Source of the DNA: an uncultured Dehalococcoidales bacterium
Lineage (GTDB): Bacteria; Chloroflexota; UBA6077; FW602-bin22
Assembly: GCA_964536925.1 (NCBI GenBank)
Contig: CAZHZF010000007.1
Location: 5,237 to 69,236 of the forward strand
Direction of reading: 5' to 3'
Length of the DNA stretch: 64,000 nt
Part shown: positions 7,272 through 45,399 of the stretch, in pieces
Layout of the letters: every line of letters begins with the position of its first letter
Numbering within the stretch: the first letter of the stretch is position 1
Notes under the pieces: generated by a model
Told to the model about the DNA's origin: nothing
Seen by the model: only the letters and a program-made list of their open reading frames with translations
Databases searched by the model: none
Position numbers and translations under genes: made by a program

Positions 7272-8113
7272 GCGTTCGTCTCACCCGCGCGCCTGAGTTC
7301 GATGACGATCTCCTGATCGTCGCCGGGTGCGTCGAGCGCGAGGGTCAGGTCTTCGCTGTACGTCTGTCCCGCGCCGAGGGCGATGTCGTCCCGAGACGCG
7401 AGGGTCGTTTCACCGCTATGGGCCAGAATGGAGTAGCGCCCCCCGCCGCCGGCCGACTGTTCGATGCCCACCCGCACGCTGATCGGCGCACCGGGAGCGG
7501 CCGCGCGCGGGTAGTCACTCAACTGCCCGGTCGGCCCCAGGACGTAGAACGAGGTGGGCATGGGAGGCTGGCTGACCACGGAGAGCCAGTAGGCGACCGC
7601 GGCGATCGCGAGGTTCGCGATGATCAGCGCCTGCGTGAACCGTGCGGCGCGCTGGACACGGGCAGGTCGCTCGCTCTCCGTTGGAGCCCCGAGCGCCCCG
7701 GCGCCGCGCGCGCGGCGGGCGGCCGCGAGCAGGCAGAAGCCCAGCGTGACGCCGCAGAGCGAGAAGCGCAGGTTCGCAGACGTGATCTCGCCGGCGAGCG
7801 AGTTCAGGATGAGGCCAAGGATCGCCATCATCGCGAAGGAGAGGGCGATCCCCACGCCGATGCGCGTGACGCGATCGATCTCGGCGTCGTCGGGCAGGAT
7901 GGCCGAGACCAGCGCATAGCCGGGAAGAAAGATCACCGCCAGGATGCCCAGGGGCGCACCGATCGCCGGTGCGACCCCCGAGACGAAGGTTGCGGCGACC
8001 GCGCACACCGCGACCAGCGCGAGATCGCGCGTGCCTCGCTCGGGCGCGGCAACGCCCGATTCCGGCGCGAGCCTGGGCCCGCCGCCGAACTCCGCCGAAC
8101 CCGTTACCGTCAT
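7208..8113 (-). CDS. DUF1616-like membrane protein
   Basis: It has N-terminal TM helices with FLPGYALVSAIL and a C-terminal soluble part (FYVLGPTGQLSDYPRAA...VRVGIEQSAGGGGRYSILA). This resembles the archaeal/bacterial DUF1616 architecture. Its start overlaps the upstream stop by 4 nt (8110-8113). Confidence 0.7.
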   Translation of the reverse strand: MTVTGSAEFGGGPRLAPESGVAAPERGTRDLALVAVCAVAATFVSGVAPAIGAPLGILAVIFLPGYALVSAILPDDAEIDRVTRIGVGIALSFAMMAILGLILNSLAGEITSANLRFSLCGVTLGFCLLAAARRARGAGALGAPTESERPARVQRAARFTQALIIANLAIAAVAYWLSVVSQPPMPTSFYVLGPTGQLSDYPRAAAPGAPISVRVGIEQSAGGGGRYSILAHSGETTLASRDDIALGAGQTYSEDLTLALDAPGDDQEIVIELRRAGETNAYRTLRLWVDVDASAAPRTSS

Positions 8114-9741
8114 CGCTGGTACGGCGTCCTCGGTCGGAGTCGATACACCTGAGCTTCACCGTTGTCGTAGACGCGCAGTTCGCCGCTCACCGGCGGCAGC
8201 ACCTGCCCGGTCCGTGCGGCACGCAGGCGCACGATGTCCGTCACGGCGTACGTGCGGATGCCGGGACTGAACTGGCCGGTGTGTTGAAAGACATACTGCC
8301 CGGACATGACCACGTGTGCGGTGAACAGCCGCTCGTCGAGATCGGACCAGAAGGATCGATCGCTCAGATGTGAGTTTGCGAAGCGCATCACCGCCTCCTC
8401 GGCCGGCACGTAGAACGTCCATTTGTTGCTGAGGATCGGCTCGTTCGTTGCCTTGGCGACAGCGAACAGCGTCAGCATGCCGAGCGCGCCTGCGGCGAGG
8501 ATGCGCAGGCTTCGCGTGGGTCTCCACTGCGCGAGGAAGATCGCCACAACCGGCGCCGCGACCATCACGAAGGACGGGAACGATCGGTACTGGAGATTGC
8601 CCCCGAAAGAACCGGATCGGTCCGCGATGATGCTCAGGAAACCCTGCGCGGCGAACGCGCCGTAGAAGAGCCACAGGAGCCACTGGCCCACCGTCGGCGC
8701 CGACCTCGGGCGCGCCAGCCAGATCAGGCCCAGCCTCCCCCACGCGATAGCCGAGGTGAGCATCAGGACGTAGGTACCGATGGAGAGGAGCAGGTAGATG
8801 CGCGGATCGATCCACTGCTGGAAGATCGTCGCGTACGGATCGTATTCGACGATATCCGAGGTCGCCGCGGAGTCCTCCTGGCTCACCGTGAGGAACAGGC
8901 GCGAGAGGCGGTCGAACAGATCCGGCACCTGATTGATCGCGTGCCCGGCTGGGGGGTACAGGTAGTTGCTGAAGAGATACGCGAGCAGAGCGCAGAAAAG
9001 CGGTGCGTAGATGAGCCGCTGGCGGGTCGTCGCGGCCACGCTCCCGAGACCAGGCCCGAACAGCGCCGCGATCATCGAGCCGATGAGCGCCACGCTCATG
9101 GCCCAGATGAAGGAGGATCCGAAGAGCGAGTTCGTCGCGATGACGCCGTAGACGGAGAGATAGAAGAGGAGGATGTAGACCGCCTGCTTGGTGGGGGCGG
9201 ACTGTGCACGAAAGGAGCGGACGAGCAGCCAGATGGCGACGAAGAGGAGCGCCCGGAGGACCCGCTCGTGGCTGCCTCGCAGGACCACGAAGAGAAACTC
9301 CGGCTGGGTAACCAGGAGCACGGTGGCGATCGTCGCGGCGCGGCTCGACCCCGTCAGTTCGCGATAGACCGGCCAGGCCACGAGCACGAGAGACGCGCTG
9401 ATGAGCGGATAGAGCGCCTGCAGCAACGTCTGCACCGAGAGCCCCGTCGTCGCCACCAGTGCCGCCGAGACGAGGGAGAACAGGTAGCCGTTCGGGTAGA
9501 TCTCGTCGGCCACCGGCACGAGGGTTTCATTGCGGATGATCGCTCGGATGGCCGACGCCATGACCGCCGTGTCGCTGTCGGCCCATCGACCGGCGTAGCG
9601 GAAGCTGAAGTACGCGCCGAGGATGAGGGCAAATGCGGTCAGCGCCGCCACGATCCAGGCGTTCCCCGCCGGCAGCGGATCTTCGCCGCGTGCCGGAACG
9701 ATCGCGGCGACGCGCGGCGCGGCCTGCGCACGGGCGGCCAT
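8110..9741 (-). CDS. 543-aa polytopic membrane protein (GT-C / polymerase-like; family not assignable by eye)
   Basis: I count more than 10 hydrophobic helices. Its start overlaps the stop of the 827-aa gene at 9741. It sits between the DUF1616-like gene and the exported giant protein. The function call is inference from context only. Confidence 0.7.
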   Translation of the reverse strand: MAARAQAAPRVAAIVPARGEDPLPAGNAWIVAALTAFALILGAYFSFRYAGRWADSDTAVMASAIRAIIRNETLVPVADEIYPNGYLFSLVSAALVATTGLSVQTLLQALYPLISASLVLVAWPVYRELTGSSRAATIATVLLVTQPEFLFVVLRGSHERVLRALLFVAIWLLVRSFRAQSAPTKQAVYILLFYLSVYGVIATNSLFGSSFIWAMSVALIGSMIAALFGPGLGSVAATTRQRLIYAPLFCALLAYLFSNYLYPPAGHAINQVPDLFDRLSRLFLTVSQEDSAATSDIVEYDPYATIFQQWIDPRIYLLLSIGTYVLMLTSAIAWGRLGLIWLARPRSAPTVGQWLLWLFYGAFAAQGFLSIIADRSGSFGGNLQYRSFPSFVMVAAPVVAIFLAQWRPTRSLRILAAGALGMLTLFAVAKATNEPILSNKWTFYVPAEEAVMRFANSHLSDRSFWSDLDERLFTAHVVMSGQYVFQHTGQFSPGIRTYAVTDIVRLRAARTGQVLPPVSGELRVYDNGEAQVYRLRPRTPYQR

Positions 9742-12224
9742 CAGTCCTCTCGCGTGCGCGTGCGGTCGGCCCAGACGAGGAAGGCGACGCCGATGGAGAT
9801 CGCGACGCCAAGCGTGAGACTGGCGGTGATCGCGCCGCTCGCGAAGGGAGGCAGGCGTTGTGCGGTGAGGATCGTCGCCAGATCGCTGGGCGGGACGCGG
9901 TTCACACGGACGGCCGCGACCTCGGAGACCGCGGTCGCTCCGCCGGTCGCGAACGCCTGCAGCGTCCAGTCACCGGGGAGGACCGGTATCCAGGTCATCT
10001 CGATCGGCGTCGTTCCATCGGCGTCGATGCGCGTCGTCGTGGTCGCGGCGACGCGGGCGTCCTGGCCGCCGGCATCCCGCCAGGCCAGGATCGAGATCAC
10101 CGCCTGAGGAATCGGCACCGCGCTCGGGTTTACCACGCTGACGCTGAGACGCGTGGGCATCTGTTCCACCGCGTCATCCCCCCGTGTCCGCGGGCTGCCC
10201 AGCGAGATCGGTACCGCCGGCGCCGGTGAGATCGTGGCGCCCGTGACCGGGTCGACCCGCAGCCGATACGTTCCCCGGTCCATCGCCGGGAGCAAGGCTC
10301 CGGCTCCCTTGCGCTCGACGAGTCGGAGGAGGAACGTCTCCTCACCGCCGGCATCCGCGAACGACCAGGCCTCCGCCCCCGGGATCGTCTCCACCTCCGA
10401 CGCTCGGGCACGGAACATCGTGGCGATATCGTGGCCTTCATCGTACGAGGCCACCAGTCGGTGCAGATCGCGGAACGCTTCCCAGGACGCGCGATCGGTC
10501 GGCGGCGCGATCGTGGCGAGTTCGCGCTCCGCCGGGCCGCGGCCGACCTCGACGCCCGCTGGAGTGGAGAGGACGAGCCAGCCGCCCACCCGCGCGAGGA
10601 CCCCGAACAATCCCCCCGCCTCGACATCCTCCCAGCGCTTCACACGGCCGTCCGGGCTGTAGGCGTACCGGAGTTGCCGCTGGTCCGTAAGTTGCCAGTA
10701 TCCGAGCTCCGCGCCGATCAGATGCAGTTTGTGGTCTACCGCGTCCAGGTAGAGGCGTGGGCGGCCGCCGAGAAAGCCCACTGCCTCGCCGCGGAACCCC
10801 ACGGCGATGCTGCCACCGAGGAGGTTTCGCTTCTCCAGGCTGAAGCCGGCGAGGTAGTTCTGCTGCTCCTCCGAGCACGCCGTGCATCCGGAGTAGATCC
10901 CCTCGGTCGTCCAGAACCTCGGAGTCTCCGTGGCGATGAAGTTGACCGCCTCCCAGTCATTCTCGATCACCCACTTCGGGAACTCCGCATACGGCACGGT
11001 CCGCACCGCCACGCCCTCGCCGACCTCCACGACCGAGGGCATGGGTCTCCGTCCCGCGGTGGAGATCATGTAGGAGAGCCGCTGCGTGTGGTCGTGGTCC
11101 CAGCTGTAGCGTGTTTGATGGAACGGTTCTTCGATCGGTGTATCGGAGAAGTAGTCCGCGGCGACCCACGATTGATCGCGGATGATCAGATCGGGGACAC
11201 CGTCATCCTTGCCGGCGAGGTTGTAGAAAGCGAAGGGGTTCTCGAAGTTGGCATCGACGGCGCCGCCGTCACCGAATCGGAGCAAGGAGTAGATGAACCA
11301 GTTGGTGGGCCGCCCGCGCGACGCGACGAACTCTCCGATCACCTGGATCCGGCGGCGGCTGAAGTCGATCTGAATTGGCGGAAAGGATTCGTGGTAGTTC
11401 TTGACGATCCCGTACGCCGCCTCCGAGATGGCACCGAGCGGCCGGCGCGCGGGCGGTTCCACGATGAGATTCCCGGCACCGAACTGGCCCAGGTGCGGCC
11501 ACAAAATGTAGGTCTCCACCGGCACCTCGTCGTCCGCGGTGTTCACCATCAGGAGCGTGCGGTAGATCGCGGAAAGGTCGCTGATCGGTGGTCGCGTCTG
11601 GATAATCTGCCAGTCCGGTCGCCCGTCGCCATCCCGATCGAACACGCGGGTGACGATGTCCGCGATGCCGTCGGTGCGCGTGAACTCGAGGAAGACCTCG
11701 CTGTTGAAGGCGGCATTGACGGGGCCGTCGGTGCGGAGCGTCAGGTTGTAATTCACCGTTCCCTGGCGGCTCCACCAGCCATCCGGCGCGATGACGGTCA
11801 GGGAGGGGAAGCGTGATTCGATCGAGCGCGGATAGCCGCGCTCGAGCCCATGGCGCAGCTCTCCATCTCCGTTGGCATCGTCGTAGAAGTCGGCGACGAG
11901 CGCGCCCTGGTCCCGCCGGAAGTCGATGAGGAGGCTGGCGCGCCCGGTCGCCCCCGCGTCGAAGACCCACACGGCGTTCTCGGTGTTGATCTGCGTGCGC
12001 CAGTCCGCCGCGGTGTCGACCGGTTCACGGGCGTACATGAAGAGTCGATCGTGCTCCGAGTAATACCCCGGGCGGCAGTCCAGGATCAGGATGTCCACCC
12101 CGAACTGGCGCTGCCACGACGGCCGGCAGCCATCGAGACTGTCGTAGGCGGCCCGGGCGCGACCCTGGAGCGCCACGGCACCGACGATGGCCAGGATGAG
12201 CGCGACCGCGCGAAAGCTCGCCAC
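9741..12224 (-). CDS. 827-aa exported protein with C-terminal membrane anchor, unknown family
   Basis: It has a signal-peptide-like N-terminus (MASFRAVALILAIVGAVALQGRARAA) and a C-terminal TM helix followed by a basic tail (ASLTLGVAISIGVAFLVWADRTRTRED). GC3 is good throughout. No recognisable catalytic motif. Confidence 0.8.
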   Translation of the reverse strand: MASFRAVALILAIVGAVALQGRARAAYDSLDGCRPSWQRQFGVDILILDCRPGYYSEHDRLFMYAREPVDTAADWRTQINTENAVWVFDAGATGRASLLIDFRRDQGALVADFYDDANGDGELRHGLERGYPRSIESRFPSLTVIAPDGWWSRQGTVNYNLTLRTDGPVNAAFNSEVFLEFTRTDGIADIVTRVFDRDGDGRPDWQIIQTRPPISDLSAIYRTLLMVNTADDEVPVETYILWPHLGQFGAGNLIVEPPARRPLGAISEAAYGIVKNYHESFPPIQIDFSRRRIQVIGEFVASRGRPTNWFIYSLLRFGDGGAVDANFENPFAFYNLAGKDDGVPDLIIRDQSWVAADYFSDTPIEEPFHQTRYSWDHDHTQRLSYMISTAGRRPMPSVVEVGEGVAVRTVPYAEFPKWVIENDWEAVNFIATETPRFWTTEGIYSGCTACSEEQQNYLAGFSLEKRNLLGGSIAVGFRGEAVGFLGGRPRLYLDAVDHKLHLIGAELGYWQLTDQRQLRYAYSPDGRVKRWEDVEAGGLFGVLARVGGWLVLSTPAGVEVGRGPAERELATIAPPTDRASWEAFRDLHRLVASYDEGHDIATMFRARASEVETIPGAEAWSFADAGGEETFLLRLVERKGAGALLPAMDRGTYRLRVDPVTGATISPAPAVPISLGSPRTRGDDAVEQMPTRLSVSVVNPSAVPIPQAVISILAWRDAGGQDARVAATTTTRIDADGTTPIEMTWIPVLPGDWTLQAFATGGATAVSEVAAVRVNRVPPSDLATILTAQRLPPFASGAITASLTLGVAISIGVAFLVWADRTRTRED

Positions 12225-12244: not shown

Positions 12245-13180
12245 ATGGGGTCCCGGCAAGGAACCACGCCCACCGTTCGGTTGTGGTACATCTCGCCCGT
12301 GCCTCTGATCTCGGTCGTGATCCCCAGCTTCAACTACGCGCGGTACGTTGGGCAGGCAATCGAGAGTGTCCTCAGCCAGACGTTCACCGATTTTGAACTC
12401 ACCGTGATCGACGACGGCTCCAGGGACGAGACGCGTGCGGTCGTCACCCGGTACACCGATTCACGGCTCCGTTACGTGTACCAGGAGAACAGCGGCCTCT
12501 CCGCGACCCGCAACAACGGCTTCGCGATGACCTCCGGAGAGTTCATCGCCTACCTGGACGCGGACGACCTGTGGCTGCCGCACAAGCTCGAGCGTCAGGT
12601 CGAGCGGGTGAAGGATGATCCCGGGGTCGGCCTGGTGAGTGGGGGTTACTACCTCCAGGACGAGGAGACCGGCGCACGCACCGAGCGGCGGTCAGTCCTC
12701 GAGGGCAACGTCCTGCACCGGGTCGCGATCGAGAACGTGGTCGCTGGTTCGGCGACGACCTCGCTGCTGCGCCGCTCGGTGCTCGAACGCACCGGGTTGT
12801 TCGATACGACGCTGCGCGCCTGCGAGGACTGGGACCTGTGGCTTCGGGTGGCCCGGGTGACGAGATTCGCCTACGTCGATGAGCCGATCGCGGTCCTCCG
12901 CCGACATCGGACGAACATGTCGAGCGAATCCATGCGCATGCGGCTCTGCCTGACGCGGGTTCTCGATCGCTTCTACCGCAGTCCGGATCTGCCGCCGGAT
13001 ATCCGACGCCTGGAGCCGCGGGCACGCGCCGTCGCCCACCTCACCATGGCGAAACTGGCCGTGCGCCTCGGGCATCGCCGAGAGGCCGTTGCCGATCTGG
13101 CCCGCGCGATCTGGCTCCAGCCCAGCTGGCCGGATCCCTATCTCGTGCTCTCGTCCGTGGTCGTGAAGGGGCACCGTTAG
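12245..13180 (+). CDS. glycosyltransferase family 2
   Basis: It contains LISVVIPSFNYARYVGQAIESVLSQTFTDFELTVIDDGSRDET and YLDADD (DxD). The true start may be GTG 12299 (VPLISVV), which would leave about 75 bp of divergent intergenic space. Confidence 0.85.
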   Translation: MGSRQGTTPTVRLWYISPVPLISVVIPSFNYARYVGQAIESVLSQTFTDFELTVIDDGSRDETRAVVTRYTDSRLRYVYQENSGLSATRNNGFAMTSGEFIAYLDADDLWLPHKLERQVERVKDDPGVGLVSGGYYLQDEETGARTERRSVLEGNVLHRVAIENVVAGSATTSLLRRSVLERTGLFDTTLRACEDWDLWLRVARVTRFAYVDEPIAVLRRHRTNMSSESMRMRLCLTRVLDRFYRSPDLPPDIRRLEPRARAVAHLTMAKLAVRLGHRREAVADLARAIWLQPSWPDPYLVLSSVVVKGHR

Positions 13181-13226: not shown

Positions 13227-15362
13227 TCAGGACATCCGGGAACCGGTCAGAAGCAGCCTCCGCTCCCTCCGGTCGATCCAGCCGCAGTAGAGTCGTTCCG
13301 GGAGGAGTCGGATCGCACGCCCGAGACGCGACTCATCCAGATCCCGTACCTCAACTCGCACAAACCCGGCCTCGCGCAAACGCGCAAGCCACTCAGGTCC
13401 ACTCAGAACAGCGGACGTGCCCTGACCTGTCCGCTCGTATGTCTGGCGCAACCGCGTAAGTGTTGGGCGGCTGTAGTCGAAGACGAGCAGCGACCCACCG
13501 GGGCGAAGCACACGTCGCGCTTCGGAGAGGCACCGGTCCAGTGTGAGTTGATGCAGCGTCCCAATCAGGAAGACCACGTCAAATGAACCGCCAACGAAAG
13601 GGAGAGTGTGGGCGTCCCCGAGGAGATCGGGGTCGCGTGGCAACAGGTCTCTGTACGATTCGTCCGTAATGTCGATCCCGACATATGTCCCACGCACTGC
13701 GGCGCGGTACTGAGCCATCCCACAACCGATCTCCAGGCTCCTGGATTCATCGACAGTCGCCCGCCTGAGCCAACGCGCGATCTCGGGGTCCCGATACGCG
13801 TCAAGTGGATCCGATCCGGGCGTGGACACCTCAGATGCCCGAGTTGTCGCTGTCGCGTGATCCTCGGCGGAGGACCGGACGACGACCTCACGCAGCGAAT
13901 CTGCTGGTATTCGATTGGCAAGAACGCCGCGGATTGCACGCATCTCTTGCGGTGTAATCGTCCTGAGGGCCAGAAGGCCTATAACGTATGTTGCCACTCC
14001 CGCGATGGACGCAAGTGCAAGATCTGCGACGGTCAACACATCGAGAGGATACACAAAAACCAGGAATACGATCATGATGGCAGTCGCAGCGCAGATCCGC
14101 CATATCCGTGAATATTCGTAAGTGAGAGGGAGGGCTCGAGAGCCGAACCACCAGGTCAGACAATACTGAAATGCAAACGATATGAACGTGGAAAGAGCTG
14201 CGCCGCCGATTCCCATCGACGGGATGAACAGAAAGTTAAGTACTAGATGAAGTATTGCAGCCAGCGCCATGCTCAAAGTGGAGAGTGACTGGCGGCCGAC
14301 CAGTCCGAGGCTCACATCGAAGTAGCTGGCCATCATCATGGCGCCATAGCCGAGAGTGATCAGTACTGCAAAATCCGCACCGTAAACAAACTCTGGCGTG
14401 GTTAATACTGAGAGAAGATCTCGAGAATAGATCCACAGACCGGCCATAGCCGGTATTAATAGTGCGAGTGCAGCCGACGTTGAATAGCGAAATAGCTGCT
14501 GCAAATCCTTGATGCGGTTGTGGTTGTACATTTCTGCCGCAGATGAGGGGTACATTACCCAGATAGGGTTGAAAATCACACCGATGAGCGCGTAACCAAT
14601 GTTGTAGGCGACGCTGTAGACCCCGATGTCGAACAGCGTGCCGTACTGTGCCAGGAAGATGCGGTCGGAGGAATTGAGAGCCCACATCCCATAGCCCATA
14701 GGAACGAGAGGGAGTCCAAAGCGCATGAACTGCACGAGCATCGTAGTATCTGGTGCTCCAAATCCATGGCTGAGTGCAATCTGCCCGAGTGCGGCGATAA
14801 TGAGCGCGAAGTCGGCGATGAGACCCGCGACAAGTAGAGTGTAAGCATCGCCACCGAGCGTAACAGCTACGACGGATACCGCCGTGGCAATGAGAGATTG
14901 GCTGACATTGAGAGTGGCGTAACCACGCCCGCTTGATACAAGGCGATAGTAGTTGCGACACGCGGTGAGGAGGAGAGTTGTCGCCAGGGCTGCGCCACAC
15001 AGCACCACGAAACGCGCGTGGTCCGCGTTTCCAAACAGTACGGTTGCGATTGGGGCTGCGAACGCGACGAGAATCAGGGAGAAGAGGACGCTTACAGCCG
15101 CGTAGTACAGGATCAGCGTGGTCACGCCGGATTGAATGGTGCGACGATCGGTTCCGGGCAGGAATCTGACAGCCGCAGAGTCCGTTCCGACAACTGCGAT
15201 CGGTGCCACCATGCCCACGATTACGGCGACCTGTGCCCAGGCTCCGAAGTCGGTAGGACCGAGGGCGCGGGTCAGTATCGGGAGGAGGAAGAGCGTTTTG
15301 AATCGCAGGAGCAGTTCCGTGACACCGAGGATGCCGGCGTTGCGGAAATACGCCCCGATCAC
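13227..15362 (-). CDS. MOP/Wzx-type polysaccharide flippase fused to a C-terminal SAM-dependent methyltransferase domain
   Basis: The N-terminal approx 480 aa form a multi-helix Wzx-like domain (MIGAYFRNAGILGVTELLLRFKTLFLLPILTRALGPTDFG). The C-terminal approx 190 aa carry motif I SLEIGCGMAQ (around nt 13739), FDVVFLIGTLHQL and RRVLRPGGSLLVFDY. It is a single uninterrupted ORF. Confidence 0.85.
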   Translation of the reverse strand: MIGAYFRNAGILGVTELLLRFKTLFLLPILTRALGPTDFGAWAQVAVIVGMVAPIAVVGTDSAAVRFLPGTDRRTIQSGVTTLILYYAAVSVLFSLILVAFAAPIATVLFGNADHARFVVLCGAALATTLLLTACRNYYRLVSSGRGYATLNVSQSLIATAVSVVAVTLGGDAYTLLVAGLIADFALIIAALGQIALSHGFGAPDTTMLVQFMRFGLPLVPMGYGMWALNSSDRIFLAQYGTLFDIGVYSVAYNIGYALIGVIFNPIWVMYPSSAAEMYNHNRIKDLQQLFRYSTSAALALLIPAMAGLWIYSRDLLSVLTTPEFVYGADFAVLITLGYGAMMMASYFDVSLGLVGRQSLSTLSMALAAILHLVLNFLFIPSMGIGGAALSTFISFAFQYCLTWWFGSRALPLTYEYSRIWRICAATAIMIVFLVFVYPLDVLTVADLALASIAGVATYVIGLLALRTITPQEMRAIRGVLANRIPADSLREVVVRSSAEDHATATTRASEVSTPGSDPLDAYRDPEIARWLRRATVDESRSLEIGCGMAQYRAAVRGTYVGIDITDESYRDLLPRDPDLLGDAHTLPFVGGSFDVVFLIGTLHQLTLDRCLSEARRVLRPGGSLLVFDYSRPTLTRLRQTYERTGQGTSAVLSGPEWLARLREAGFVRVEVRDLDESRLGRAIRLLPERLYCGWIDRRERRLLLTGSRMS

Positions 15363-15394: not shown

Positions 15395-16030
15395 CTACGC
15401 CCCCTGCGAGGGATCGGCCAGGTCGATACAGAAGATCGCCTGATGCGCGTCGATCGCGGCGCGGAGGAACCGACGCTTACGTATCGGAATGATCGTGCAC
15501 CGCTGTCCGAGCGACTGGTAGATTGCCGGATAGTCGTGGTGGAAGTTCCACGGCGATGTCTGGCGGGAACTCGCCTGGAAGTCGCTGCCCTGCCACCAGT
15601 CAATGTGCACAAGGTGTCGCTGCGCATGGCCCAGGAGGCAGCCAATCACTGTGACGATGTCGGTCGGCGGGACGTGCAGCAGCACTTCCGATGCGAGGAC
15701 AACATCGAATCGCTCGCCCTCCGGGAGTGACTGGATATCTGAGACCCGAAACTCGAGACCGGGTCGTTCGCCAACATAGGTGCGCGCCGCGTCGATCTGA
15801 TCGGCGGAGAGATCGCTTGCGACGTACCTGGTGATTCCCGGAATCTGCTCCAAAACCAGGCGCGTGATGCGCCCGAAGCCGCACCCCACCTCAAGAACGC
15901 TCTGGCCGCGGCGCGAGCGCAGTGCCTCGACAATCGCGGACTCCTGCAGAGCGAAGTGCTTCTGCGGGAACGCCTCCCGTGAGTAGGTCTTGCCGCGTTC
16001 CGTCCAGTACGCGTGCGGATCGTACGTCAC
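15395..16030 (-). CDS. class I SAM-dependent methyltransferase
   Basis: Motifs VLEVGCGFGRITRLVL, FDVVLASEVLLHV. It overlaps the upstream FemAB-like gene by 4 nt. Confidence 0.85.
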   Translation of the reverse strand: MTYDPHAYWTERGKTYSREAFPQKHFALQESAIVEALRSRRGQSVLEVGCGFGRITRLVLEQIPGITRYVASDLSADQIDAARTYVGERPGLEFRVSDIQSLPEGERFDVVLASEVLLHVPPTDIVTVIGCLLGHAQRHLVHIDWWQGSDFQASSRQTSPWNFHHDYPAIYQSLGQRCTIIPIRKRRFLRAAIDAHQAIFCIDLADPSQGA

Positions 16031-17118
16031 GAGGACCGGCCTCGGGCAACTCTGGATAGAGCGGTAAGGATTCTCGAGCGACGCGTCGAGCGCTCCTTCG
16101 TGTACCTCACGTACTCAGTGTAGATGCCGCCCCATTTCTCCTTGAATCGCCTGATGCCAGCCTCCTTGTCGCTCGACGGACGTGGCGCAATGCCAGCGAG
16201 ATCAAAGAGGCGGGCGCCGGCATCCTTCGCCGCGATGAGAACGTGCCAGTGGAGAAGATCCTGGGCCGGAATGCCGGATTCGTACGCTCGGTTCGTCGTC
16301 GACGACGCGATCTCGGTCGCGACGCCGCCGAACGCATAGATGCCCAGGGTAGCCAACGGATGCCCGTCGGCGTCCTGGGCGACGAAGTATCGGTAGATCG
16401 ATCGATCGGTTCGTTCCCAGAGCGCCGTCCAGAACGAGCCGGTCTGACGTGGGCGTCCATCGCGCGCCTCACACGCGTCGTAGGTTCGCGCAAACCGATC
16501 CGCAAAGTCTTCCGCTGTGCCGATCTCTACGGCTGTTGCACCGAGCCTTTCGCACTTGCGTACTGCCTTGCGCGCGGCCGGGCTGAGCACGTCCCAAATA
16601 CCCTCTCGAGACGGAGACAGGTCCACGAGGAGAGAAGCCCAGAGATCGGCGGTGTATCCTCGTTCGATGAAGGCGTCACGCGCAGGACTTTCCAAAGCAT
16701 AGAGAGGAGCAGTCGCGTTGCTGCTCGTCGTAATTTGCGAGACTCTATGTGACGAAGCAAACTGCGATACCCAGTCCAGCAACAGATTCACTGAGATCAC
16801 GTCGTATCCAACAATGTGGATGATGGGTCCTGCCGACAGATCGAGGGTGCCTCCGTCGAGGCCGACAACCGATGAGTACCACGATCGCGCCATTCTTGTC
16901 GTCAATCGGTCGAAAGGTGGTCGATGGAGTGCCAGCAGAGAGGCAACTACGTCATTGCCAGAGCGTACTTCAAGATAGAAAGGGTCCGCCCGGTCGACGG
17001 CAGCGACGAGATTTGCCCACATTGAGGTCTGCACAAATGTGGCAACTGTCCCCTGCTGACGAAGCCGCTCGTCCCAGCCCGGCGGAGGCGTTGATGAACA
17101 CTCGATCGCCAGACTCAC
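16027..17118 (-). CDS. FemAB/FemX-like (GNAT-fold) peptidyl/aminoacyl transferase family protein
   Basis: The C-terminal half (YRYFVAQDADGHPLATLGIYAFGGVATEIASSTTNRAY...LLHWHVLIAAKDAGARLFDLAGI...GIRRFKEKWGG) matches the characteristic FemAB/FemX pattern, including the terminal F-K-x-K/G-F/W-G-G motif. Confidence 0.7.
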   Translation of the reverse strand: MSLAIECSSTPPPGWDERLRQQGTVATFVQTSMWANLVAAVDRADPFYLEVRSGNDVVASLLALHRPPFDRLTTRMARSWYSSVVGLDGGTLDLSAGPIIHIVGYDVISVNLLLDWVSQFASSHRVSQITTSSNATAPLYALESPARDAFIERGYTADLWASLLVDLSPSREGIWDVLSPAARKAVRKCERLGATAVEIGTAEDFADRFARTYDACEARDGRPRQTGSFWTALWERTDRSIYRYFVAQDADGHPLATLGIYAFGGVATEIASSTTNRAYESGIPAQDLLHWHVLIAAKDAGARLFDLAGIAPRPSSDKEAGIRRFKEKWGGIYTEYVRYTKERSTRRSRILTALSRVARGRSS

Positions 17119-17123
17119 GCCTG

Positions 17124-18275
17124 TTACCGCGACCGCCTATCCGGCAAGTACTCCCTCAGCCGATGACCGGTGAGCAGCGCGTAGTAGAAGAGAAACGGAT
17201 CGACGGTCTTCTCCCAGGAGTAATGAGTCCGCATCCATCGGCTCCCCGCCTCTCCGCATCGGCGCACCGCGTCCGGGAGGTTGGGATCGGTCAGTGTGGC
17301 GTAGATCTCCTCCTCGGTTCGCACGCTGATGACGGGCGGGTGTTCGTCGTACAACAGGTCCAGGCACACCGGGTCAAGATAGGCCAGAACGGCGCGGCCC
17401 AGCGCCATCGCTTCGAGCGCGATGCCTCCGAGGCCGCCCACATCAAACTGATCCACGATCACGTCGGCTGATGCGTACTCGGCGCCCAGATCCTCGCGGG
17501 AAAGGTGCGGACGCCAGGTGAATCGCGCCGCATGGGCACTCTGGGTCGTCATCTGTCGAGCGAGGGCCCGATCCGGCCCCCGATCCAGAATCACGCACTC
17601 TGCGTCGAGTCCAGCGTCGAACGCGCGAAGCAACGCCCGCAGGAATCGGTCATTACCTTTTGTCGAGTTGCGTTGGGGGCCGGGATCGTTAACCCCCCAG
17701 TCCAGGTGGCTCGGGTGGAAGAGGCGCAGTCGAGAACCCGGCGATCTGCGGGGCAGGGCGGGTTGCACCGGGTAGTAGTACGGGTAGGTCAGGAAGAGGA
17801 TATTCGGCACGCCGACCGTCAGCGCGTTGTCGATCACGTGTGGATAGGGATGGATGACGTTGTAGGCGCACCCACGCACGAACTGACGAAGCGTCTCGGC
17901 GAGTGGCGAGCGGGCCACGATCAGTTCGCCGAAGTCGCTCCCGGTCGAGAAGTTGATCACCGGCGGAATGCCAAGGACCCGGCGCAGGAGCCAGCGCCGA
18001 CCGATCGCGAAGCCGAACGCCCCGCCGAACGATGCGATGAGGCGAGCGCGGCGCGCCAGCGCCAGCAGGTCGGCCGGGCCGTGGAACCCGCGGATCTTCG
18101 TCGGGTCGTAGGCCTGAAAGTACTCCGCGGGAACCGTGATCTCCGTCTGGTCCCGCGCCGTCGCGTGCCGAACGACCGCGACCTTCACGCCCCGACGCGC
18201 CAGGTGCTCGGCAAAGAGCAGGTCGAACCCGATCAGACTGCCGATGATGAGGACATCGATGTCGCGGCGCGTCAC
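17124..18275 (-). CDS. GT-B fold glycosyltransferase (GT1/GT4-like)
   Basis: The N-terminus is a Rossmann strand (DIDVLIIGSLIGFD). The C-terminal domain contains GGLGGIALEAMALGRAVLAY. Confidence 0.75.
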   Translation of the reverse strand: MTRRDIDVLIIGSLIGFDLLFAEHLARRGVKVAVVRHATARDQTEITVPAEYFQAYDPTKIRGFHGPADLLALARRARLIASFGGAFGFAIGRRWLLRRVLGIPPVINFSTGSDFGELIVARSPLAETLRQFVRGCAYNVIHPYPHVIDNALTVGVPNILFLTYPYYYPVQPALPRRSPGSRLRLFHPSHLDWGVNDPGPQRNSTKGNDRFLRALLRAFDAGLDAECVILDRGPDRALARQMTTQSAHAARFTWRPHLSREDLGAEYASADVIVDQFDVGGLGGIALEAMALGRAVLAYLDPVCLDLLYDEHPPVISVRTEEEIYATLTDPNLPDAVRRCGEAGSRWMRTHYSWEKTVDPFLFYYALLTGHRLREYLPDRRSR

Positions 18276-18301: not shown

Positions 18302-19645
18302 ATGGAGATCGTTCACCCCCGCGAACCGCGGCGACCCTTCGCGATCCACCGCCCGCCGGATGTATCGACGGACCGCACTCCGCGCTGTATCTTAGCGAAC
18401 GGTTTGGACCGTTCCCGGCCCGTACTCTGCGTCGTCAATTACGAACCCATCGCCCGCTACCGCGACCTCGGGCACTCGCTCGAGATGTTGCGGCGCTACT
18501 ACAACCCGAATGGCTACTTCTCGGCGGTGCACATCGTGGCTGTGGACGATGGCGAATGGGACGTCTCGCCGGACGTCCACGTCCACGGCGCGCGCGGGCC
18601 GGATCTGCTCGCCCGAGTCGTCTCGGTCGCGCGGGCGACCGGGGCGAGCGTCATCAGGAACTTCGAGGCGTTCCCCACGCATCTCGTCGCGGTGCGCGCC
18701 GCGGCGATCCTCGACGTTCCCGCGGTCATCTCGCTGCACGACGTGATGTCACCCTCGACCGTGACTCTGTTCGATCACGTCTTCGCCTACGTGGAATGGC
18801 TGCGCGATCGGGTACGGGCGCAGCACGGCTACCGGAACGCGTCCTTCCTGCCCAATCGGATCGACGAGGGGTTGTTCACCCCCGGTCCGCCGCGCTCGAT
18901 CGAGGTTGAGGGCTCTCCTCGCTTCGTCTGCGTGGGGCGACTCGACGAGCGAACCAAGAACATCGGCACGCTCCTGCGCGCGATCGATCTGGTGCGGGAC
19001 CGGCTGCCCGATCTCCGTCTCGCCGTGATCGGCGAGGGACCGGGTCGCGCCGACTACGAGCGGCTGATCGAGGAACTGAAGCTCGGCTCACGGGTGAGAC
19101 TCGTGGGCAATCAGCGCGAGGATCGGGTTGCGGACTGGTACCGCTGGTGCGATGCCCACGTACTCGTGAACGACTCGGGAGATCTCGGCCGCTCGTTGGT
19201 CGAATCGCTAATCGCCGGCAAGCCCGTCGTGGCGACCGGCGGGCGTGGCAACTCCCTGCACCATCTCGAGCACGGCGCGAACGCCTTTCTCGTGCCCATC
19301 GAGCGCATCCGCGACCCGGCGGCCATCGCCGAGGGGCTCGTCTGGATGGCCGAGAACCATTCCCGCCTCGATCCCGCGGCGATTCGCGAGCGGGCAGTTG
19401 CCGAGTACGGGTACGATCGGTGGGCGCGTGTCGAGGCGGAGACATACGCCGCGGTGATCGCGGCCTTCCGTGCCAGGCCGCCGCACGAGCGCCTGTGGCG
19501 GCGGCTGCGCGTCCTCCTGCTCTCCTCGATCGCGGGCACATCGGGCCCGACCAGACCGCTCCGCATCGCGTACCGACTCGCCCAGGCTGGCATGGCCTGG
19601 CGGTCTCCGCGGCGGGCCGAGGGACTCTCATCGGCGTCGCTCTGA
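18302..19645 (+). CDS. glycosyltransferase family 4
   Basis: RFVCVGRLDERTKNIGTLLRAIDLVRDRLPDLRLAVIGEGPGRADYERLIEELKLGSRVRLVGNQ and LGRSLVESLIAGKPVVATGG. It lies only 26 bp from the divergent GT start at 18275. Confidence 0.85.
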   Translation: MEIVHPREPRRPFAIHRPPDVSTDRTPRCILANGLDRSRPVLCVVNYEPIARYRDLGHSLEMLRRYYNPNGYFSAVHIVAVDDGEWDVSPDVHVHGARGPDLLARVVSVARATGASVIRNFEAFPTHLVAVRAAAILDVPAVISLHDVMSPSTVTLFDHVFAYVEWLRDRVRAQHGYRNASFLPNRIDEGLFTPGPPRSIEVEGSPRFVCVGRLDERTKNIGTLLRAIDLVRDRLPDLRLAVIGEGPGRADYERLIEELKLGSRVRLVGNQREDRVADWYRWCDAHVLVNDSGDLGRSLVESLIAGKPVVATGGRGNSLHHLEHGANAFLVPIERIRDPAAIAEGLVWMAENHSRLDPAAIRERAVAEYGYDRWARVEAETYAAVIAAFRARPPHERLWRRLRVLLLSSIAGTSGPTRPLRIAYRLAQAGMAWRSPRRAEGLSSASL

Positions 19646-19683
19646 GCGCGGTGCGAGCGGTCGCTCGCCGCGTTCCTCTGGCC

Positions 19684-21750
19684 ATGGCCGTGGCGGCGCG
19701 CATGCGTCACGGTCGCGACACGCTGCTCGATCGCCTCGAACTCGGCCGAGCGAGCATCTCCCCGGGTGGGACTGCTGACCTCAGCGCCGCGGAACGCGCC
19801 GTCGATTGGCTCCGCGCCGGTGAGCTTCCCGGCGGAGGAATCCGCGTCCACGATCGGCACCTTCACGCCTATCAGGAGGTGACCGGCTATCTCATCCCGA
19901 GCCTCCTCGACGTCGGCGCGCGTGATCTGGCCTGCCGATGCGCGGAGTGGCTCATCGCCGTCCAGCGCGAGAGCGGCGCGTTCGTCGATCCCGACCGGGG
20001 CGAACCGTACGTGTTCGATACGGGCCAGGCGCTCCGGGGCCTGCTCGCCGCCCGCGACATCGTGCCCGGCGCCGCCCGCGCCGCCGCCCGCGCCGCGCAC
20101 TATCTGTGCCGTTCGCTTCGCGAAGGCGGTGCCGGCGGGTTCCCCGAAGCGTATCGCGGGAGCGTCGCCGCGGAGCCGATTCAGCTCTATGCGCTCTCGC
20201 CGCTGGCGCGGTATGCCGAGCTCGCGGGAGACCGCGATGTGCGCGAAGCCGCGGCGCGGGCCGTCGCGCACTACCTGAAGCATCCCGATCTGCTGCGGAT
20301 CGGTGATCTCACCCATTTCCTCGTGTATCAGGTGGAGGCACTCATCGAGCTGGGTATGGCGGACCGCGCCGCGGGAACGCTGGCGATGCTGGGTCAGGCG
20401 CAGGTCGCCGACGGCTCGGTCCGCGCGACCGGCGCCGGGGCGTGGGTGTGCTTGCCCGGCCTCGCCCAGCTGGCGATCTGCTGGTATCGAACCGGCGACC
20501 CCTCCCGCGCGGATCGTGCACTCGCCTGGCTCGAGCGACACCAGCGCCCCTCTGGTGGGTGGCGCGGCAGTCACGGGTTCGGCGCCACCTACTTTCCCCG
20601 ACGGGAACTGAGCTGGGCGGTCAAGTTCTTCCTCGATGCGGCGCGTCGACGCGAGATCGCCTGGCGCCGGGCCTATGCCCCCGAGGGGGCCCTCGGCGCG
20701 ATCGGCCACCTTCCGACCGGTCCGCTCGGGCGGCTCGCGATCATCGGCGACCGGACGAACGTCCTCGCCCGCGCAGCACGGGTCGTGCTCGCCGACTGCG
20801 CGATCGAGAGCGTTGAGTTCCCCATCGACGATTCGCCGCCGTTCGTCCTCTCGGCCCGCCCGGAGTTCCTGCCTCTCGCCGATCGCGCCGCCGACGCGGT
20901 CCTCGTCGCCAGTCTTGCCCACGCGCTCGATCGGCGGGCGGCGATCCGCGAGGTGACGCGCATCGTCCGTCCGGGCGGCAGCATCGTCGTGCTGGGCGAC
21001 GCCCCGATCGAGACCTGGTTGGGTGATCGATGCGCGATCGAACGGCGCGTGCAACTGCCCCAGGGTCAGACAGTGACCGTCGCCCGCCGTGTCGAGCGCG
21101 ACCGCATGACGTTGGCGTCCACATCCGCCGCCACCACGGCAGCCGCACCAGCACCGGGTGCGATCGACGTCGACGCCATCCGCTTCGGGAGGGTGGCGCC
21201 GGTGATCCGCCGCCTGATCTGCCTCGTCGAGCCGGCTCCAGGCCGATCCGTGCTGGTCGTCGGCGACCCTGGCTCCCATCTCCCCCTCCACCTCGCCCGG
21301 CAGGGCGCCCGCGTGATCCTGGAAGCCGGACGCGCGACGAGCGCTCTTCTCGACGCCTGCCGGGCCCTCGATCTGCCCGCGACGGCATTTGCCGTCTCTA
21401 CCGGTGCGGATGCGTCCCCGCAGGATGAGGGCTCGATCGATGCGATCGTCGCGGTCGATCCGAGCGCCGACCTGTTCGCGGCCGGATCGGTGGTAGCGGC
21501 CGCCTTGGCGCGGCATCCTGTGCCGCGGCTGATCGTCGCGCTGCCGCTATCGGCGGATGTGACCGGGTCGCAACGGGTCAGACTCGATTCCGGGCTTCCC
21601 ATGTCGACGCTGCTCTCCTGGTTCGGCAAGATCGCGCCCGCGCCCGAGATCGAGGTCATCGCGGCCCACTCGATGCACGGCGAGGAGAGGAGCGGGCCAC
21701 ACTGGCTTATCGCGAGCGGTCCTCCGGTGCCGGGACCTATGAGCACATGA
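19684..21750 (+). CDS. multidomain protein: alpha/alpha-toroid (prenyltransferase/squalene-cyclase-like repeats) plus two methyltransferase-like Rossmann domains
   Basis: ORF 19147-21750 overlaps the upstream gene, so the start was moved to ATG 19684 (MAVAARMRHG). The N-terminal approx 330 aa carry repeated Q-x-x-x-G-(G/A/S)-(W/F) type motifs (AVQRESGAFVD, QAQVADGSVRA, RHQRPSGGWRGSHG). Next comes RLAIIGDRTN...RIVRPGGSIVVLGD, then VLVVGDPGSHLPLHLARQGARVILEAG. The glycine-rich loops are degenerate. Confidence 0.75.
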   Translation: MAVAARMRHGRDTLLDRLELGRASISPGGTADLSAAERAVDWLRAGELPGGGIRVHDRHLHAYQEVTGYLIPSLLDVGARDLACRCAEWLIAVQRESGAFVDPDRGEPYVFDTGQALRGLLAARDIVPGAARAAARAAHYLCRSLREGGAGGFPEAYRGSVAAEPIQLYALSPLARYAELAGDRDVREAAARAVAHYLKHPDLLRIGDLTHFLVYQVEALIELGMADRAAGTLAMLGQAQVADGSVRATGAGAWVCLPGLAQLAICWYRTGDPSRADRALAWLERHQRPSGGWRGSHGFGATYFPRRELSWAVKFFLDAARRREIAWRRAYAPEGALGAIGHLPTGPLGRLAIIGDRTNVLARAARVVLADCAIESVEFPIDDSPPFVLSARPEFLPLADRAADAVLVASLAHALDRRAAIREVTRIVRPGGSIVVLGDAPIETWLGDRCAIERRVQLPQGQTVTVARRVERDRMTLASTSAATTAAAPAPGAIDVDAIRFGRVAPVIRRLICLVEPAPGRSVLVVGDPGSHLPLHLARQGARVILEAGRATSALLDACRALDLPATAFAVSTGADASPQDEGSIDAIVAVDPSADLFAAGSVVAAALARHPVPRLIVALPLSADVTGSQRVRLDSGLPMSTLLSWFGKIAPAPEIEVIAAHSMHGEERSGPHWLIASGPPVPGPMST

Positions 21751-23578: not shown

Positions 23579-24498
23579 GCCGCGAGCTCCAGCATCGTCC
23601 GAAACTCGCCGTTGAAGTTCCTGGCGAGCCACGCAAGGCGCGCCTCGAAGCGATCGCGATGGCCAACCGCGCACCCTGGACGGGGCAGGTCCACGAACTC
23701 CCATGGATGGCTGAGGATCACCAGGTGGCCCTGTGCGTCACCGGCGGCCTCCTGGCACGCGAGGATCTCCTCGACCGCAAGGGCGAGGTCGGTCTCCGTG
23801 AAGTCGATCACGTTGCTCACATTCAAGATCGCGAACCGCGCCCACGTCGGGATGCCGTAGCGTCTTCTCATCCGCGGCCGCGGGCTCGCGGACACCGGGA
23901 TGCGGATAAGTCCCCGCTCTCGGGTGACCAGGGGCAGAGCGCCGCGGAAGGCCGGCGCCGAGGAATCGAGCGCGAAGCCAGATTCGCGCAGCAGCGCGAG
24001 ACTCGCGACATCGCAGCAGAGGTTCGGGGCCCGAAACATCGTCGGCCGTGCCAGGCCCGCACGCGCGAAGGCCGCGAGCGCGAACTCCATTCGCTGCGTC
24101 CGTTCCGCGAGGGAGAGGCGTGGCTCGGGCGCGAACCAGAGCGGGTCGCCCCACTGCTCGTGGAGGTGGCCGTGGAGCCCGATCGCATGTCTCTCGGCCA
24201 GTTCGCGAAGTTCCGTGCCGATCGCCTCGCAGATCGACCCCTGCACGAACAGGGTCGTCCGCCAGTCCTGCGCCGCGCACATCGCGCCGAACCAGTCCAG
24301 GAACGGCGCGCACGCCGACCAGTGCTGTGGCGTGCCGGCCGATCCGAAGTCCTGTTCCACATCCACGGTCACACAGATCGTGGTCGGCCGCCTTGGGTCC
24401 CGGCGACGGCGGGGTAACCGGTTCCAGCGCGACACCCAGAGCGGCGCGTGGTGCGGCAGACGTGGCTCGCGTGCCCAGTCGAGGATCCGATCAAGCAC
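23575..24498 (-). CDS. polysaccharide deacetylase-like (CE4/DUF3473-type) protein
   Basis: ICVTVDVEQDFG and IGLHGHLHEQW resemble the D-x-E and H-x-H metal-binding signatures of the polysaccharide-locus-associated deacetylase family. It overlaps the upstream gene by 8 nt. Confidence 0.65.
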   Translation of the reverse strand: MLDRILDWAREPRLPHHAPLWVSRWNRLPRRRRDPRRPTTICVTVDVEQDFGSAGTPQHWSACAPFLDWFGAMCAAQDWRTTLFVQGSICEAIGTELRELAERHAIGLHGHLHEQWGDPLWFAPEPRLSLAERTQRMEFALAAFARAGLARPTMFRAPNLCCDVASLALLRESGFALDSSAPAFRGALPLVTRERGLIRIPVSASPRPRMRRRYGIPTWARFAILNVSNVIDFTETDLALAVEEILACQEAAGDAQGHLVILSHPWEFVDLPRPGCAVGHRDRFEARLAWLARNFNGEFRTMLELAA

Positions 24499-43896: not shown

Positions 43897-45360
43897 CTAG
43901 ATGCCGATCGAGACGGCCTTGGTCTCCATGAAATGATGGATGCCGTCGGACCCGTTCTCGCGCCCCAGTCCAGACTGCTTGTACCCGCCGAACGGGATGT
44001 GCGCGCCCACGGGCACGGGATCGTTCACACCGACGATGCCGTAGTCGAGTCTCTCCGAGACACGGAAGATCCGTCCCACGTCGCGAGCGTAGAAGTAGGC
44101 CGCGAGGCCGAACGGAGTATCGTTGGCCAGTCGGATCGCCTCATCCTCGGTCTCGAAGGTCGCGATCGGGAGCACCGGGCCGAACGTCTCCTCGTACATC
44201 ACCTTCATATCCGAAGTGGCCCGACCGAGCACGGTGGGCTGATAGAAGTGACCGGACAGCCCATCCCCGGGCCGCACCGGCGCCCCGCCGGCCAGCACCC
44301 GCGCCCCTTTGCCCACCGCGTCGGCGACGTGCTCCTCCACCTTCGCGAAGCCGCGCCGATCGATGAGCGGACCGATCTGCACTCCCTGGGCTGCGCCGTC
44401 ACCGACCTTGAGTCCACGCGTGATCTCGGCGACTCGCGCCTGAAACGTCTCCGCGACCGACGCCTGCACGTAGACACGATTGGTGCAGATGCAGGTTTGC
44501 CCGGCGTTGCGGAAGCGTGAGGCGACCACGGCCGCGGCCGCCTTCTCGATATCGGCGTCTTCGAAGACGATGGACGGGGCGTGCCCACCCAGTTCGAGCG
44601 AGACGCGTTTCACGGAGTCGGCGGCCAGGCCGAGCAGGGACTTGCCCACCTCGGTCGATCCGGTGAACGTGAGCTTCCGGACGAGCGGGTTGGTCGCCAT
44701 CTCGCGCCCCATCCCCGCCGAGTCGGTGCCGGTAACCAGATTGACGACTCCGGAGGGGAAGCCGACCTCCTCGAAGATGCGGAATACCTCAAAAGCGACG
44801 AGCGGCGTGGCGCGCGCCGGGCGCAGGATCGCGGTGCAGCCGGCCGCGAGCGCCGGACCCAGTTTGCGCGTAACCATGCTGAACGGGAAGTTCCACGGCG
44901 TGATCGCCGCGACCACCCCCACCGGCTGGCGGTAGGTCAGCACTCGGCGATCCGGTGCCGTAGGCGGTACGACCTCGCCGTAGGTGCGACGCCCCTCCTC
45001 GGCGTTCCACTGCAAGAACGCCGCACCGATGGTGACCTCACCGCGCGATTCCGCCAGGGGCTTGCCATTCTCACTCGTCAGCACCGCGGCGAGATGCTCG
45101 ACGCGCTCCACCATGAGCGCCGCGGCTTTCGTCAGGAGGGCGGCGCGCCGATCGGCTGTCGTGGCCGCCCACCCGGCGAAGGCGTGGTCGGCCGCCTCTA
45201 TCGCCTGCCGAACCTCGGCGACTCCACCATCACCCACATCGGCGAGATGCGCTCCCGTGGCCGGGTTGTTGACCGCGAACGTGCGTCCCCCCGGGGCCGC
45301 GTGCCACGCGCCATCGATGAAGAGCGATCGTGCCGCGAGCGCGGCCTGGGTCGTTGCCAT
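43897..45360 (-). CDS. NAD(P)-dependent aldehyde dehydrogenase, succinate-semialdehyde dehydrogenase-like
   Basis: ORF 43897-45564. Met69 (45360) is preceded by AAGGAGG. It contains FAVNNPATG, VSLELGGHAP and FRNAGQTCICTNRVYV (catalytic Cys). Length is 487 aa. Confidence 0.9.
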   Translation of the reverse strand: MATTQAALAARSLFIDGAWHAAPGGRTFAVNNPATGAHLADVGDGGVAEVRQAIEAADHAFAGWAATTADRRAALLTKAAALMVERVEHLAAVLTSENGKPLAESRGEVTIGAAFLQWNAEEGRRTYGEVVPPTAPDRRVLTYRQPVGVVAAITPWNFPFSMVTRKLGPALAAGCTAILRPARATPLVAFEVFRIFEEVGFPSGVVNLVTGTDSAGMGREMATNPLVRKLTFTGSTEVGKSLLGLAADSVKRVSLELGGHAPSIVFEDADIEKAAAAVVASRFRNAGQTCICTNRVYVQASVAETFQARVAEITRGLKVGDGAAQGVQIGPLIDRRGFAKVEEHVADAVGKGARVLAGGAPVRPGDGLSGHFYQPTVLGRATSDMKVMYEETFGPVLPIATFETEDEAIRLANDTPFGLAAYFYARDVGRIFRVSERLDYGIVGVNDPVPVGAHIPFGGYKQSGLGRENGSDGIHHFMETKAVSIGI

Positions 45361-45393
45361 AGATGTCGTCGCTGCCTCCTTGAAAGCCCCCTG

Positions 45394-45399
45394 ATTGTA
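45394..45399 (-). promoter_or_regulatory. candidate -10 element TACAAT for the aldehyde dehydrogenase gene
   Basis: The minus strand reads cacaggTACAATcagggggctttcAAGGAGGcagcgacgacatctATG. A small hairpin (45411-45427) lies just upstream. Confidence 0.3.

Follow-up and report, generated by a model that had tools for sequence, protein, structure and literature searches.

Does a bacterium of the Chloroflexota make a Wzx-type flippase and a methyltransferase as a single protein, and does such a protein represent an evolved way of tying methylation to glycan export? The question was raised by an open reading frame (ORF) of 711 amino acids (aa) on the minus strand at 13227..15362 of the window, by which we mean the whole stretch of 64,000 nucleotides (nt) that was analyzed. 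We found that the frame is open throughout and that both predicted domains are intact. The same two domains were separate, adjacent genes in related loci, and the fused state lay a single nucleotide change away from that arrangement. The reading that we prefer, and to which we give an even chance, is a lineage-specific in-frame fusion of neighboring genes in a glycan cassette (GT1 glycosyltransferase, FemAB-like protein, methyltransferase, flippase, methyltransferase), which tethers a methyltransferase to the flippase so that the glycan is modified and then flipped.

The fused frame and its two halves

The original prediction had described one uninterrupted ORF with a flippase domain, an intact methyltransferase (MT) and a cytoplasmic location for the latter, and all of these elements held up, the location as a prediction. 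The list of ORFs confirmed the single frame, and every string quoted from it (SSAEDHATATTRASEVSTPGSDP, LEIGCGMAQ, FDVVFLIGTLHQL and RPGGSLLVFDY) was found in the translation. The GTG start codon is sound, as homologues align with the N-terminus from residue 1. Homologues of the flippase half had E-values as low as 3.7e-125, and for the MT half the value fell to 8e-40 (P0155). These values and the Pfam scores for both halves far exceed those to be expected of a chance ORF in GC-rich DNA.

Residues 1–480 make up a predicted lipid-linked-oligosaccharide flippase of the MOP/Wzx type. Pfam matches were to Polysacc_synt (PF01943; residues 7–273, E 3.4e-16, 59.9 bits against a cut-off of 28.2) and Polysacc_synt_3 (PF13440; residues 29–322, E 2.1e-15, 57.2 bits against a cut-off of 23), and flippase homologues of ~500 aa aligned to residues 1–477. 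The gene also sits in a glycosyltransferase-rich cluster, with GT1, GT2, FemAB-like and MT genes around it. A full-length AlphaFold2 (AF2) model built on 45 flippase homologues had a predicted local confidence (pLDDT) above 90 at residues ~20–480, which formed 14 transmembrane (TM) helices in a two-lobed helical bundle; the MT part of that model (pLDDT 25–50) had no usable alignment and is meaningless. When the flippase model was compared with the PDB by Foldseek, the top matches were WzxE (9g9p, lipid III; E 2.5e-9, TMt 0.77) and MurJ (6nc6, lipid II; TMt 0.82), followed by MATE transporters. Top matches to WzxE and MurJ spanned TMt values of 0.75–0.82, at a probability of 1.00.

As modeled, then, the flippase half has the MOP fold in the 14-helix layout described for TacF and shared with MurJ, whereas its sequence is only 12–18% identical to those of the solved flippases, and a PDB sequence search with this half gave no significant match. 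It is not an orthologue of HfsF, since it scored 82.6 bits against a cut-off of 700 for that NCBIfam equivalog (NF050818). Loops between the model helices carried 11 lysines and arginines on the cytoplasmic side and 3 on the external side, with 5 more in the first 25 residues after TM14. Because of this bias and the even number of helices, the C-terminal extension is predicted to be cytoplasmic. Both termini of the flippase half would thus lie in the cytoplasm, so that the MT would sit at the inner face of the membrane, where S-adenosylmethionine (SAM) is available; the likeness of the fold to WzxE and MurJ agrees with this placement.

The C-terminal ~190 residues appear to be an intact class I SAM-dependent methyltransferase. 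Pfam Methyltransf_11 (PF08241) matched residues 543–626 (E 2.8e-15, 57.2 bits against a cut-off of 21.2), and Methyltransf_25 (PF13649), Methyltransf_31 (PF13847) and Methyltransf_12 (PF08242) also exceeded their cut-offs over the same stretch. The motifs LEIGCGMAQ, VGIDIT, GDAHTLPF, FDVVFLIG and LRPGGSLLVFDY were all present, each at a place that is invariant or conserved in the MT family alignment A3; G, C, G, Q and Y are invariant across that alignment. Standalone MTs of 200–214 aa (P0155, P0178) were 43–46% identical to residues 520–708. A separate AF2 model of this half, based on 11 homologues, showed the Rossmann-like, seven-stranded alpha/beta fold of class I at moderate confidence (mean pLDDT 73.4, pTM 0.74), and Foldseek returned 1200 MT matches at E≤1e-3, headed by BioC, RebM, AtmM and phosphoethanolamine MTs at E~1e-10. 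Small class I MTs of the Methyltransf_11 type, among them the sugar O-methyltransferases RebM (3bus) and AtmM (6uv6), share with it motif I, the acidic residue after strand 2, LPF, FDVVF, RPGG...FDY and the alpha/beta fold; in sequence, however, the window MT is only 14–25% identical to any solved MT. The best NCBIfam equivalog, the DVU_1556 family, gave 42.8 bits against a cut-off of 155, and no equivalog was reached. Both halves can therefore be placed by these profiles in broad families and in no curated equivalog.

In every invariant column the window sequence agrees with the MT alignment (A3) and the flippase alignments (A6, A7), so neither half looks decayed. Two features set the protein apart from its kin. 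Its C-terminal enzyme domain is absent from all ~200 flippase homologues listed, and its MT, unlike small MTs of the Methyltransf_11 type, is covalently tethered to a membrane transporter. The linker between the halves had low predicted order, with pLDDT values from 66 down to 47 over residue blocks 481–520.

Relatives carry two separate genes

A flippase gene and an adjacent, separate gene for an MT of ~200 aa were found in nine related loci (L001–L004, L007, L010, L013, L017 and L027). In L001–L003, where the flippases are 43–45% identical to that of the window, the order is GT1, in some cases an MT, FemAB-like, flippase and then a separate MT of 203–209 aa that is 27–37% identical to the window's C-terminal domain. 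The flippase likewise precedes the MT in L007, L010, L013, L017 and L027. Stop and start codons at these junctions lie close together. They overlap by 4 nt in L001 (ATGA) and by 8 nt in L013, and they abut in the same frame in L017 (TGA then ATG) and L027 (TAG then ATG). Spacers measure 7 nt in both L003 and L010, 19 nt in L002 and 148 nt in L007. Judging by these loci, members of the MT family are normally separate proteins of ~200 aa whose genes follow immediately after those of this flippase subfamily, and the stop codon often overlaps or touches the start codon.

The closest relative was P0050, encoded in L004 (a 1-kb JGI contig), which was 69% identical over flippase residues 235–485. Its flippase gene ends in a TAG stop, followed by a 17-nt spacer containing GAGGGG and the TTG start of an MT that, by hand count, is ~63% identical to the window MT over its first ~52 alignable residues. 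That is, the two halves of L004 have diverged together with those of the window, and therefore the ancestor had two genes.

The linkage of flippase and MT seems to be frequent without being obligatory. Among MT-family loci with enough upstream flank, the gene directly upstream was a flippase in only about a third, and in others it encoded a FemAB-like protein, a sulfotransferase, an FkbM-type MT or UDP-glucose dehydrogenase; in L011, L012 and L026 a flippase was nearby and not directly upstream. As a separate observation, a FemAB-like gene, this flippase subfamily and this small MT family recurred together in L009, L011, L015/L016 and L001–L003, in varying orders (FemAB-flippase-MT, FemAB-MT, and FemAB-MT with the flippase further on). 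This recurrence suggests a three-gene functional module, in which perhaps an aminoacyl decoration is added and then methylated.

The junction is one nucleotide from two genes

Around the fusion point the sequence reads ...ACT CGG GCA TCT GAG GTG TCC..., corresponding to T507, R508, A509, S510, E511, V512 and S513. In alignments, flippase homologues run out at window residues ~485–510, and standalone MTs start at residues ~512–514. By this comparison the linker consists of the former C-terminal tail of the flippase and the former N-terminus of the MT. Two genes are read as one because the flippase stop codon is missing in the window.

We enumerated every single-nucleotide edit across codons 485–522. 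A G>T change in GAG511 creates a TAG that abuts GTG512 and yields a flippase of 510 aa and an MT of 200 aa, the arrangement seen in L017 and L027. A 1-nt insertion anywhere in codons ~492–510, for example in the GGG run, also gives a 510-aa flippase, which then ends at a TGA located 1 nt before GTG512. Between two conserved anchors the window has 5 nt fewer than L004, and both the stop and the TTG start are missing from it; at ~70% nucleotide identity, the junction differences between the two sequences do not appear assignable to single events. We also considered the alternative frames at the junction. One is open and resembles no homologue, and the other has 4 stops in 95 codons. Neither matched the homologue tails better, and these tails are too variable to decide the matter.

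Because the genes are separate in all nine loci and the difference could amount to a single nucleotide, the fusion is either very recent or an assembly error. The original prediction had treated the fusion as a designed architecture, and this part of it was not supported, given a singleton that is one nucleotide change away from the separate genes of all nine related loci, the 69%-identical L004 included.

Search for the same architecture elsewhere

We looked for the combination in protein, genome and metagenome collections. In a word-indexed search of 5.8 billion proteins, the query alone combined PF01943 with MT domains among the 47 matches listed; the next 46 were flippases of 432–537 aa that covered 28–72% of the query. 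An exhaustive phmmer search of 1.84 billion representatives gave the same picture, the best 150 matches (down to 142 bits) each having a single matched stretch and a length of ≤525 aa. These were either flippases or standalone MTs of 200–214 aa (P0155, P0178). Any second fusion, even one whose halves were only moderately similar, would have scored above these 150 matches. With the MT half alone as the query, all 11 matches were standalone MTs.

A metagenome scan with the MT-family alignment recovered 80 loci, of which 24 were clear family members (L005–L028). The stop-to-stop frame around the MT never exceeded 303 codons in these 24 loci, and none held a fusion. Scanning GTDB species representatives with the full protein revealed no relative, and scanning all 185,579 of them with the flippase alignment A7 returned only L085, a distant locus in an archaeal metagenome-assembled genome (MAG), at 28% identity. 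The flippase subfamily is thus almost absent from the GTDB representatives as searched and readily found in metagenome assemblies, a pattern for which the scan, being pattern-based, may be under-sensitive.

The open-access literature likewise yielded no described Wzx-methyltransferase fusion. It had been said that the architecture was not known as a described one, with the caveat that it might prove common and already annotated. Neither the two protein searches nor the 24 MT loci gave another example, so the first point stands; taken together, these results indicate a singleton and not a conserved bifunctional architecture. A parallel from the word-indexed search was P0031, an 848-aa protein in which a flippase of the same Pfam family is fused to Glycos_transf_1. 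In this flippase family, then, a cytoplasmic glycan enzyme can be joined to the transporter, and the fusion in P0031 recurs (11 member sequences, 3 contigs). In contrast, the partner in the window is a methyltransferase, and the fusion was found once.

What the fusion may represent

If the fusion is real, its operation can be pictured from known steps, as it is established that lipid-linked glycans are methylated in the cytoplasm before they are flipped, and an O-glycan cluster of Tannerella forsythia reportedly contains both a Wzx and methyltransferases. Neighboring glycosyltransferases would assemble the lipid-linked unit, to which the FemAB-like enzyme would probably add a substituent. The MT, tethered at the inner membrane face by a flexible linker of ~40 residues, would methylate the polyprenyl-diphosphate-linked glycan, either on a sugar hydroxyl or on the substituent added by the FemAB-like enzyme, and the MOP domain would then flip the methylated unit across the membrane. 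In relatives the pair is already coupled in translation; fusion would in addition fix its proximity and a 1:1 ratio.

Several considerations weigh against this reading. The fusion occurred in no second genome, and the protein's 90% cluster has one member. By the edit analysis, a single nucleotide separates the fused state from the usual arrangement of two genes, with GTG512 still present and an off-frame TGA 1 nt upstream of it. So short a distance is equally compatible with a real, recent mutation and with an assembly error of one base. Finally, the closest solved folds to the MT model (BioC, RebM/AtmM and phosphoethanolamine N-MTs) are generic and do not identify a substrate.

An assembly error is the rival that we take most seriously, although we consider it doubtful. 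On this account there are two real genes, for a 510-aa flippase and a 200-aa MT, and the contig has either lost a G from the GGG run or had a TAG replaced at the GAG codon of E511. A homopolymer does lie at the right place, adding 1 nt restores the flippase and leaves a GTG 1 nt later that opens an MT of the size of the standalone proteins P0155 and P0194, and the source is a MAG-type contig of an uncultured member of the Chloroflexota without close sibling genomes. The separate genes in all nine related loci point the same way. However, the rest of the window consists of long intact ORFs and is 91% coding, so the assembly is not visibly error-prone, and short-read consensus indels in runs of 3 nt are rare. 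The TGA near the GTG is weak evidence as well, given how common stops are in that frame, and the only Shine-Dalgarno-like sequence of a restored two-gene version, GAGG, overlaps the start codon itself.

The change could instead be a real and recent stop loss or 1-nt deletion without any innovation, the product being neutral or mildly harmful, or the MT still being made from the internal GTG at V512; the fusion would then be uninformative about mechanism. We regard this as improbable. The singleton status, the single step from the split state and the retained former MT start codon would all be expected of such a mutation. So would its setting: third-position GC content (GC3) was 0.64–0.66 in the flippase-MT and FemAB-like genes, against 0.80–0.89 in typical genes of the window, and in variable glycan loci the wzx and wzy genes are well known to be unusually poor in GC. 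Such a cassette is probably variable and exchanged between genomes, and transient variants are to be expected in it. Yet all family-invariant residues were kept in both halves, the predicted topology would permit a working fusion, and the abutting in-frame stop and start codons of L017 and L027 show that the pair tolerates extreme coupling.

A third alternative, put forward in the original prediction, is a dedicated, evolved bifunctional protein in which translocation has methylation as its obligatory checkpoint or its terminal cap. Two known systems make the idea conceivable, and Wzt is known to recognize the cap made by WbdD. To our knowledge, TacF is the only well-studied case of "proofreading" by such a flippase. 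TacF of Streptococcus pneumoniae, a 14-TM MOP flippase whose lipid-linked repeat unit is decorated in the cytoplasm before flipping, refuses teichoic-acid units without phosphocholine and so provides a documented export checkpoint (PMC13385700). In ABC-transporter-dependent O-antigen synthesis, chain-terminating methyl or methyl-phosphate capping by WbdD, a cytoplasmic methyltransferase that modifies a lipid-linked glycan, is reported to be tied to export (PMC3482155). The flippase-MT gene pair is, moreover, tightly linked in nine loci. Both systems also differ from the window protein. TacF senses phosphocholine through its own cavity and not through a fused enzyme, its decorating enzymes LicD1 and LicD2 are separate proteins, and its gatekeeping is documented, whereas gatekeeping by the window protein would be hypothetical. 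WbdD combines a kinase and a methyltransferase with a coiled-coil ruler, is a protein separate from the transporter, and belongs to the ABC and not the MOP pathway; Pfam scans of the ORF and its immediate neighbors showed neither an ABC nor a CBM or kinase domain, which speaks against export of the WbdD/Wzt type. The fused architecture was conserved nowhere in the searches made, and a flippase is directly upstream in only the minority of MT-family loci noted above. A checkpoint or cap function therefore drew no support from conservation, remains pure conjecture for a singleton fusion, and is in our view highly improbable.

We return to the in-frame fusion of cassette genes as the preferred reading. 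On this reading the fusion is a one-off joining of adjacent operon genes, both halves being of known kinds. As in Rosetta-stone fusions of coupled operon genes, the neighbors are separate in relatives and are joined here, by loss of a stop. It is thus a hint that the separate flippase and MT proteins work together, and conservation lends no support to methylation being required for flipping. A stronger version, in which a functional fusion reveals a physical flippase-MT complex that the separate, translationally coupled proteins of related organisms form as well, and that channels methylation into translocation, perhaps as a requirement, strikes us as quite improbable. If true, such a complex would be the Wzx-pathway counterpart of TacF gatekeeping or WbdD capping.

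Little is understood of how Wzx flippases are coordinated with the final tailoring steps in the cytoplasm. [quoted passage not shown] Practical value is limited by the uncultured organism, the single occurrence and the uncertain reality of the fusion. For annotation, the ORF should be flagged as a possible frameshift or stop loss and not propagated as a new domain architecture.

Gene neighborhood and composition

The features of the fused ORF and its neighbors are collected in Table 1. The separate MT upstream differs from the fused MT in its sequence and in its best family matches, and the order of FemAB-like gene and flippase is that of L001–L003. Glycosyltransferases and methyltransferases are abundant in the first ~27 kb of the window. 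A scan for promoters and terminators from 12.9 to 18.6 kb found no sites.

Table 1. Positions in the window of the fused frame, its parts, the junction and the neighboring genes
Feature	Position	Strand	Details and basis
Whole fused ORF	13227..15362	-	711 aa, GTG start, stop codon 13227-13229; ORF list and Pfam (both domains)
Predicted MOP/Wzx-like flippase domain, residues 1-480, 14 TM helices	13923..15362	-	Pfam, AF2 model, Foldseek, homologues
Linker, residues ~481-519	13806..13922	-	pLDDT, homologue tails, standalone MT starts
Predicted class I SAM-dependent methyltransferase domain, residues 520-711	13230..13805	-	Pfam Methyltransf_11/25/31/12, homologues, AF2 model
SAM-binding motif I LEIGCGMAQ, residues 543-551	13710..13736	-	Translation; alignment A3
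Fusion point	13827..13840	-	Sequence and single-edit enumeration
GGG run, codons R508/A509	13838-13840	-	
Off-frame TGA	13831-13833	-	
GAG codon of E511	13830-13832	-	
GTG codon of V512, presumed former MT start	13827-13829	-	
Separate class I methyltransferase, 211 aa	15395..16030	-	Pfam Methyltransf_25/12/11; upstream, same operon, 32-nt gap to flippase start
FemAB-like / Acetyltransf_6 gene	16027..17118	-	Pfam PF13480, PF02388; 4-nt overlap with next gene
GT1/GT4-type glycosyltransferase	17124..18275	-	Pfam PF00534; upstream, same cassette, position as in L001-L003
Family-2 glycosyltransferase	12245..13180	+	Pfam PF00535, E 5e-35; convergent, ends 46 nt from fused ORF

A compositional island spans ~13.2–17.2 kb, with GC content down to 0.50–0.56 inside the flippase gene. 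Near the domain junction (~13.9 kb) it rises from ~0.52 to ~0.62.

A rough gene call placed 51 genes over 91% of the 64 kb, many of the ORFs being 700–900 aa long. Among these genes, a succinate-semialdehyde dehydrogenase (43897–45564) had its best matches in Chloroflexota MAGs, at up to 95% identity (P0205).

Several other long ORFs were seen. Adjoining the glycan cluster on the minus strand are ORFs of 827 aa (9741–12224) and 543 aa (8110–9741), which overlap by 1 nt and have no Pfam match; the former has an N-terminus resembling a signal peptide and carries a hydrophobic anchor at its C-terminus. At 19111–21750, long ORFs overlap on opposite strands (867 aa at 19147–21750, plus; 801 aa at 19111–21516, minus). 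The plus-strand ORF has a partial Methyltransf_11 match (residues 568–615) and a weak SQHop_cyclase_C match, and the coding strand is ambiguous. Another fused enzyme lies in the same glycan region: the 743-aa ORF at 24491–26722 (minus) holds two complete tandem GT4/Glycos_transf_1 modules, with two stretches each for PF00534, PF13692 and PF13439.

A pair of ORFs of 827 aa and 711 aa also occurs at 45.5–51.4 kb, which raised the idea of a duplication. BLAST revealed no similarity, and the equal lengths are coincidental. The 711-aa member (45512–47647, minus) has an N-terminus like that of a signal peptide and then short threonine-rich repeats over hundreds of residues, without a Pfam match. It accounts for the spike in GC and AT skew at 46–48 kb and for the internal DNA repeats there, and it may be a heavily glycosylated surface protein.

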